Below are positions 5,250 through 5,277 of a stretch of 5,541 nucleotides of DNA, in pieces. The notes beneath the pieces were generated by a model. That model did not search any database, was not told where the DNA came from, and was given only the letters and a program-made list of their open reading frames with translations. Origin of the DNA: a virus (taxonomy: Monodnaviria; Loebvirae; Hofneiviricota; Faserviricetes; Tubulavirales; Inoviridae); the IMG/VR virus record IMGVR_UViG_2585427969_000012. One strand, written 5' to 3'. How positions within the stretch are numbered: the first letter of the stretch is position 1; every line of letters starts with the position of its first letter. A program made the translations under genes and the position numbers.

Positions 5250-5277
5250 TTGGCGCATAATGTATATTATGTTAAAT
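5250..5277 (+). other. dif-like XerC/XerD recombination site, likely the prophage-chromosome junction (attR-type hybrid)
   Basis: TTGGCGCATAA-TGTATA-TTATGTTAAAT compared with the E. coli dif consensus GGTGCGCATAA-TGTATA-TTATGTTAAAT: the central region and XerD arm match 17/17, the XerC arm 8/11. The divergent XerC arm faces the phage genes and the perfect XerD arm faces the flank. Confidence 0.8.

Follow-up and report, generated by a model that had tools for sequence, protein, structure and literature searches.

Gene Content of the Window

The window, by which is meant the entire stretch of 5541 nucleotides analyzed here, carries a run of filamentous phage genes, a site that closely resembles the chromosomal dif site of Escherichia coli, and a short stretch of host chromosome. 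The following features were assigned, with the evidence for each given in parentheses:

1–47, + strand: 3' end of an inovirus coat-like gene (alignment; the whole gene corresponds to positions 14814–15047 of the GON1437 locus L001)
259–1815, + strand: gene for a pIII-like adsorption protein, 520 aa in relatives (PHROG 3942, E 8e-251)
1828–2115, + strand: gene for a pVI-like minor coat/assembly protein (DUF2523), intact (Pfam PF10734, E 1e-20)
2119–3143, + strand: gene for a pI/Zot-family assembly ATPase (Pfam PF05707 Zot, E 2e-26)
3143–4383, + strand: gene for a pIV-type secretin (Pfam PF00263 Secretin, E 1e-24)
4472–4720, + strand: ORF of 82 aa, intact (annotated in relatives; weak PHROG match only)
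4916–5112, + strand: ORF of 65 aa (orf65) adjoining attR (PHROG 6642, E 1e-50)
5250–5277, + strand: attR, the reconstituted chromosomal dif (dif scan and alignment with relatives), made up of a XerC arm at 5252–5260 (GG--CGCATAA, 2 bp missing), the centre TGTATA at 5261–5266, and the XerD arm TTATGTTAAAT at 5267–5277
5278–5541, + strand: noncoding chromosomal flank (in relatives, it precedes a gene for a LysR-family regulator)

The coat-like protein is recognized as a virion structural protein (PHROG 2186, E 4e-29), together with a weak Pfam match to Phage_Coat_B (E 0.0016) that falls below the curated cut-off. Deletions disrupt the pIII-like gene (six 1-bp deletions at ~665, 784, 813, 1086, 1114, and 1282), the Zot gene (one 1-bp deletion at ~3081, resulting in a frameshift near the C-terminus), the secretin gene (deletions at ~3905, where 2 bp are lost, and at 4028 and 4033), and orf65 (a 1-bp deletion at ~5049 that shifts the frame). 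Judging from position and gene order, the pIII-like gene would correspond to puvA of the CUS-1 literature (PMC4266046). Likewise, the 82-aa ORF, for which no Pfam match was obtained, and the 65-aa ORF are probably, by their position, the YPO2280a/YPO2281 pair that lies next to attR in YpfΦ (PMC4266046).

With regard to noncoding elements, no Rfam family was detected in the window at gathering thresholds, and a promoter and terminator scan of positions 4300–5541 gave results no better than those for shuffled sequence. Two inverted repeats were observed in the last noncoding stretch of the phage, namely GGCCTGA...TCAGG(C)C just past orf65 (within 5100–5121) and GTTGAC-GGCCAGT-GTCAAC at 5201–5219, the latter overlapping a minus-strand sigma-70-like match of 10/12 (5218–5191). 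These repeats represent a possible terminator, operator, packaging signal, or origin signal.

Prophage Identity and Distribution

A megablast search with the whole window against the phage collection returned no match, and the identity of the phage was established through E. coli genomes and Yersinia pestis. All 5541 bases are covered, at 99.1–99.6% identity, by three E. coli genomes with prophages at the hipA-dif-ydeQRS locus, and at least 80% of the window is held by 98 records (97 genomes) among 5426 complete E. coli genomes. The best full-length relative is GON1437, whose element sits between hipBA and the ydeQRS fimbrial genes and additionally encodes an HTH repressor, the G2P replication protein, G5P, and coat protein. 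The inovirus gene set appears in its canonical order (gII/X, gV, coat, pIII-like, pVI-like, Zot/pI, and secretin/pIV), of which the window holds the portion from the pIII-like gene through the secretin gene. Pfam matches to Phage_CRI plus G2P_X_C, Putative_G5P, DUF2523, Zot, and Secretin were obtained for this set, and the coat-like and pIII-like proteins were recognized through PHROG.

The same prophage is carried by UTI89 (O18:K1:H7), from which the window differs by 25 substitutions and 19 deleted bases over 5277 bp. Furthermore, Y. pestis NCTC5923 encodes a protein with 100% identity to Zot. CUS-1 and YpfΦ have been reported to be 99% identical across 7.1 kb (PMC4266046). Considering the shared locus, the Zot identity with Y. 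pestis, and the occurrence of the same prophage in UTI89, the element was identified as the CUS-1/YpfΦ phage. Tandem arrays of this phage are frequent, including three copies in TUM14759, across positions 1–25300 of locus L003, and one tandem junction in Y. pestis, at 11142 of locus L005, and genomes that contain the phage end have it in a median of 2 places, with up to 5 per genome.

Copies of CUS-1 vary in the cargo adjacent to attL, as seen from positions 11221–12426 of the GON1437 locus L001 and positions 1621–3260 of the UTI89 locus L004. In GON1437, this region encodes a 159-aa protein and an ECs_2282-family zinc-ribbon protein, the latter with a weak Pfam match resembling Lar restriction alleviation (E 9e-4, below cut-off), and in UTI89, it encodes a 369-aa protein with no Pfam match. 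The prophage measures 9173 bp in GON1437 and 9615 bp in UTI89.

The dif Site and the Boundary of the Element

The reference used for dif was the E. coli sequence GGTGCGCATAATGTATATTATGTTAAAT, which is composed of an 11-bp XerC arm (GGTGCGCATAA), the 6-bp centre TGTATA, and an 11-bp XerD arm (TTATGTTAAAT). The + strand at positions 5250–5277, reading TTGGCGCATAATGTATATTATGTTAAAT, is the sole match to this reference in the window at no more than 3 mismatches, a level reached in 0 of 200 dinucleotide-preserving shuffles of the window, and no second dif-like site occurs within the window at up to 9 mismatches. Both the TGTATA centre and the XerD arm are exact, and the XerC arm keeps 9 of its 11 bases, with a deletion of 2 bp. 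Canonical dif, exact in all three parts, is found at the equivalent position of every relative examined. A gapped, base-by-base alignment with the closest genomes reads ccattGG[TG]CGCATAA (missing bases in brackets), so that the remnant of dif spans 5252–5277. The final phage-side ORF stops at position 5095 as read in the window and at 5112 in the reference annotation, which places it 138–155 bp upstream of the site. An earlier note, prepared from the sequence alone, had described a 28-bp dif-like site at this position, with a centre and XerD arm identical to those of enterobacterial dif and about 150 bp beyond the last phage-side ORF, and these descriptions were all borne out.

The boundary of the element was located by comparison with genomes that carry or lack the prophage. 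Among complete E. coli genomes, most alignments to the window end exactly at 5277. In the prophage-free genome 118UI, the empty site consists of the hipA flank, canonical dif, and a right flank identical to that of the window; no phage similarity is present to the left of dif in this genome, and the whole 9 kb of the element is absent. In UTI89, the same hipA flank is joined straight to an attL of the form GGTGCGCATAA-TGTACGACTCGTTATGT, with a perfect dif (attR) 9.6 kb rightward. GON1437 possesses the same pair, 9.17 kb apart, comprising attL GGTGCGCATAA-TGTACGACTCGTTATGT and a perfect dif as attR. The combination of a hybrid attL with a canonical attR occurs in GON1437, UTI89, and TUM14759, and the window itself shows attR only, minus 2 bp.

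Given the empty site in 118UI and the attL/attR pairs in UTI89 and GON1437, the site in the window represents attR, the junction between phage on the left and chromosome on the right; that is, the 28-mer is the attR of a CUS-1/YpfΦ-type prophage at E. coli dif, between hipA and ydeQRS. The earlier note had arrived at the same orientation of the junction. It had also suggested a comparison with prophage-free relatives, in which the right flank and dif of 118UI indeed align and phage sequence is missing, as well as a search for a second dif-like site at the left end of the element, and such a site (attL) is present ~9.1 kb leftward in GON1437 and ~9.6 kb leftward in UTI89. The attL of the window's own element would be the hybrid site ~9 kb leftward, beyond the window, where the form GGTGCGCATAA-TGTACGACTCG-TTATGTTGAAA is expected. 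The hipA-ydeQRS interval, which is well established as the terminus dif locus of E. coli, provides the context of dif, with hipA and the ydeQRS fimbrial cluster, in GON1437, 118UI, TUM14759, UTI89, and 23AR0885. The position at which XerC cleaves within dif is well established. When this position is combined with the CTX-type model (PMC4246890), XerC strand exchange would be placed between 5260 and 5261 in the window.

Architecture of attP and Proposed Mechanism of Integration

The attP sequence was read directly at the tandem junctions of TUM14759 and Y. pestis. It comprises, in order, the right end of the phage, GGTGCGCATAA, TGT(A/G)CGACTCG, TTATGTTGAAA, a GC-rich hairpin, and the inverted half-site CATTGTGCGAACC, with a central spacer that varies among phage variants (TGTACG or TGTGCG). 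The XerD-like arm TTATGTTGAAA matches in 9 of 11 bases at a spacing of 11 nt, and the inverted second half-site is situated ~50 nt downstream; the window contains only the XerC-arm half of this arrangement. As single-stranded DNA, attP is predicted to form one long hairpin (-31.2 kcal/mol, z = -7.7 versus shuffles) in which the inverted half-site forms a stem with the XerC arm, the centre bulges out, and the XerD-like arm also lies in paired sequence. The strand that was folded is the sense strand of the morphogenesis genes, which by inovirus convention should be the packaged (+) strand. With two inverted dif-like sites, a dif-like stem, and a bulged centre, the modeled attP follows the CTX-type design.

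According to such a mechanism, the packaged (+) single strand would fold attP into a hairpin that imitates a dif duplex whose centre is bulged, host XerC would exchange one pair of strands with dif where the XerC arm meets the centre, and replication would then complete integration. On the left, the product (attL) would consist of the chromosomal XerC arm and the phage spacer, leaving no usable dif, and on the right, the product (attR) would consist of the phage XerC arm followed by the chromosomal TGTATA and XerD arm. Since the phage XerC arm is identical to that of the host, attR would be a perfect dif. The regenerated site would continue to serve chromosome dimer resolution, putatively through FtsK-dependent XerCD recombination. 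A CTX-type exchange predicts the composition of attL and attR exactly as seen. The dependence on XerCD and the single-stranded nature of the substrate are suggested by the literature (PMC4266046, PMC4246890). In particular, insertion of YpfΦ restores an intact dif at the 3' end of the prophage and tandem arrays form, and the YpfΦ genome contains XerC/XerD sites in inverted orientation, like that of CTXΦ (PMC4266046). A review table lists both YpfΦ and CUS-1Φ in the CTXΦ class (PMC4246890).

Integration through a double-stranded attP, either XerC-first in the manner of VGJΦ or XerD-first in the manner of TLCΦ with a degenerate XerD arm, is an unlikely alternative in light of this architecture. 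When read without gaps, attP becomes GGTGCGCATAA-TGTACG-ACTCGTTATGT and superficially resembles the TLC type, and the perfect XerC arm, the TGTA homology on the XerC side of the centre, and the degenerate XerD arm would all be compatible with such a route. However, the 9/11 XerD-like arm at 11-nt spacing and the inverted half-site fold into the dif-like structure described above (z = -7.7), a hallmark of the CTX type. In addition, no integrase or recombinase domain was found in the 14 annotated GON1437 prophage proteins or the 2 UTI89 proteins scanned, a DUF3653/XafT-like domain was likewise not detected among those proteins, and published reviews count YpfΦ and CUS-1Φ among the CTX-type elements (PMC4266046, PMC4246890). 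Based on the attP architecture and the absence of a XafT-like domain, integration of the TLC or VGJ type was rejected computationally, and the CTX-type route is preferred. Integration of CUS-1/YpfΦ at dif, with regeneration of an intact dif at the 3' end, is already known and was described between 2002 and 2014.

The Shortened XerC Arm and Other Private Deletions

The sole unusual feature of the site is its shortened XerC arm, which is best explained as an error. The attR of GON1437, UTI89, and TUM14759 is a perfect dif, from which the window differs by the 2-bp deletion GG[TG]CGCATAA. The three differing positions that the earlier note had counted in this arm are reproduced when the comparison is made without gaps, but they result from reading the 2-bp deletion in that way, and gapped alignment shows a canonical arm from which 2 bp are missing.

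This deletion is one of many. Compared with GON1437, the window lacks 21 bases in 18 separate events, has 3 substitutions, and shows no insertion. With GON1437 and UTI89 as references, the events are located at about 120, 165, 190, 665, 784, 813, 1086, 1114, 1282, 3081, 3905, 4028, 4033, 4894, 5049, 5119, 5252, and 5460, with 17 of them on the phage side and a single private 2-bp deletion, at ~5460, in the chromosomal flank. The same 19 phage-side deleted bases are also missing relative to UTI89, a Sanger-era sequence. By comparison, alignment of GON1437 with UTI89 across the corresponding 5296 bp gives 24 substitutions and not one indel. Shortening of runs of 2–4 identical bases accounts for 12 of the 18 events, which is only a modest enrichment when 48% of reference bases lie in runs of at least 2, and the deletions are clustered rather than evenly spread.

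The shortened arm was also searched for in other sequences. It was found in 0 of 118 complete genomes with the phage end, where full-length matches include all 130 bases versus 128 in the window, and in 0 of 22 metagenome contigs and 0 of 21 viral contigs. Similarly, none of 50 loci contains the deleted form GGCGCATAA, and all 47 of those with the phage end read GGTGCGCATAA. TUM14759 is an indel-rich assembly of the same locus in which chromosomal genes are annotated as frameshifted too, and its dif is canonical. Considering that the indels of the window are all deletions, set against good assemblies that are free of indels, the deletions are most likely assembly errors, and the loss in the XerC arm is, in all likelihood, a sequencing or assembly artefact. 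The pattern of 18 events is more like long-read or homopolymer error in assembly than like decay of the prophage. Given so many private deletions, the frameshifts in the pIII-like, Zot, and secretin genes should not be taken as decay of the prophage without read-level support.

It is improbable that the XerC-arm deletion and the others are real and mark a strain with a decaying, locked-in CUS-1 prophage, a crippled dif, and impaired XerCD dimer resolution, even though the deletion is present in the sequence as given and several phage genes are broken, as decay would give. An excess of 18 deletion events over 0 insertions and 3 substitutions does not resemble the divergence of natural copies (24 substitutions and no indels), and a private 2-bp deletion affects the chromosomal flank as well. 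Moreover, the variant occurs neither in the 118 genomes nor in the 43 contigs of metagenome or viral origin, and even the indel-rich TUM14759 assembly of the same phage retains a canonical dif. Loss of dif is also known to be selected against. If the deletion were real, a natural E. coli would survive with its sole chromosomal dif damaged beside a decaying CUS-1, which would mean that loss of dimer resolution is tolerated or that another site is used.

A further proposal, that the variant arm is the phage's own diverged XerC arm left behind in a hybrid site, is highly improbable. In Xer-mediated integration, the XerC arm of attR does come from the phage (PMC4246890), and the earlier note had envisaged a hybrid site with one phage-derived arm. 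A hybrid does exist in the form of attL, outside the window, but the idea of a diverged arm at attR is contradicted: it would need an attP of the form TTGGCGCATAA, whereas 47 of 47 phage-end loci, including tandem junctions and viral contigs, carry the canonical GGTGCGCATAA, identical to the dif arm, and the attR of GON1437, UTI89, and TUM14759 matches dif perfectly. This case calls for caution, as an ungapped comparison made a 2-bp indel look like a "diverged phage-derived arm". Finally, the notion of an ordinary host dif that borders no mobile element, with chromosomal residents as its upstream genes, has a vanishingly small probability: the site does occupy the normal dif locus, but the comparison with the empty site of 118UI, which lacks all 9 kb of the element, refutes it, most of the element occurs in only ~100 of 5426 genomes, the same genes are found in Y. 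pestis and viral contigs, and tandem copies exist.

Overall, it is very probable that positions 1–5260 of the window are the rightmost 5.3 kb of a prophage (Inoviridae) of the CUS-1/YpfΦ type at dif, with the 28-mer as attR, a proposed integration of the CTX type, and a deletion that is likely an error.

The Right Flank and a Neighboring dif-Targeting Insertion Sequence

The flank at 5278–5541 adjoins dif in 493 of 5426 E. coli genomes, regardless of whether the phage is present. E. coli is polymorphic on this side of dif, starting at the first base beyond the XerD arm. The flank type of the window is a LysR-headed island of ~8 kb, and UTI89 and most other CUS-1 carriers have another flank. 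As no further dif-like site bounding this island was found within 35 kb in GON1437, it is not a recognizable Xer-integrated element.

On the opposite side of the prophage, a SIR2 island left of attL in GON1437 was considered as a Xer-integrated element, and this candidate was rejected in favor of a dif-targeting transporter insertion sequence (IS) of the IS1202 family (ISNCY). In GON1437, this IS lies between hipA and attL (8357–11118 of locus L001) and has a SIR2-family deacylase as passenger. The same IS is located beside dif in 23AR0885 (about 11993–14808 of locus L007), with an STM4504/CBY_0614-family passenger, and beside the Xer site TGTGCGCACAA-TCTATC-TTATGTTAAAT on plasmid pEC21Z147-128K (about 5001–7801 of locus L006). 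The IS lies 5 bp from the XerC arm, either of dif or of the Xer site on the plasmid, and is accompanied by a duplication of 5 target bases (ATACT or ATGTT). These properties agree with those of the ISAba32 subgroup (e.g., tISKpn21), for which targeting of dif/xrs has been published. The SIR2 segment, at least in part, occurs at ~1000 places in E. coli genomes, ~645 of which are on plasmids.

The interior of this IS shares ~75 bp with CUS-1 attP at 90–93% identity (8407–8480 versus 11147–11221 of locus L001), and the same segment is also present at 5051–5121 of locus L006 and 3051–3124 of locus L051. The common segment contains the XerD-like arm TTATGTTGAAA, a GC-rich hairpin, and an inverted second half-site, and it lies just inside the outer inverted repeat of the IS. 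Such sharing may reflect module exchange between two elements that dwell at dif. An ECs_2282-family zinc-ribbon cargo is found in both the GON1437 phage and the plasmid copy of the IS, although the genes are only ~74% identical.

Comparison with Known Systems

Several groups of mobile elements exploit host XerCD at dif, including the VGJΦ-type and TLCΦ-type IMEXs. These types differ from the present element in that they use a double-stranded attP and integrate reversibly, with XerD acting first in the TLC type (PMC4246890), and the attP found here does not fit them. The dif-integrating, Lineavirus-like UPΦ phages of Enterobacterales (PMC7307601) share several traits with it, as these filamentous phages also insert at the dif site of E. 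coli, occur there in tandem, and have terminal accessory genes. However, their significant homology to YpfΦ is limited to genes II and V (PMC7307601), which indicates a separate phage lineage.

In terms of mechanism, CTXΦ of Vibrio cholerae offers a parallel. Both systems lack an integrase and have an attP with two inverted dif-like sites, which folds in the (+) single strand of CTXΦ and is predicted to do so here; homology to dif is confined to the XerC side, and tandem copies occur. CTXΦ regenerates a functional dif at one end, as the intact attR of GON1437, UTI89, and TUM14759 suggests for the present phage. On the other hand, the sequences are unrelated, CUS-1/YpfΦ has its own secretin and no toxin genes, and the mechanism has been demonstrated for CTXΦ and proposed for YpfΦ/CUS-1.

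The closest counterparts are YpfΦ and CUS-1Φ themselves. YpfΦ of Y. pestis encodes the 100% identical Zot protein, and its attP/tandem-junction sequence is the same as that of this phage. It also restores an intact dif at its 3' end and forms tandem arrays (PMC4266046), and it differs in its host and in the ORFs adjacent to attL (PMC4266046). CUS-1Φ, known from E. coli O18:K1:H7 (Gonzalez et al. 2002, as relayed in PMC4266046), agrees in host species, in the dif locus beside hipA, and in gene order. The phage part of the window is 25 substitutions away from the CUS-1Φ copy in UTI89, private deletions aside, and CUS-1Φ has both small ORFs adjoining attR, like the window. Two differences distinguish the copies: the window has 17 private deletion events relative to UTI89, which are probably errors, and the attL-adjacent cargo, outside the window, is not the same in UTI89 and GON1437, the nearest relative of the window. 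Gene content, sequence identity, locus, and the structure of the att sites all place the element in the CUS-1/YpfΦ group.
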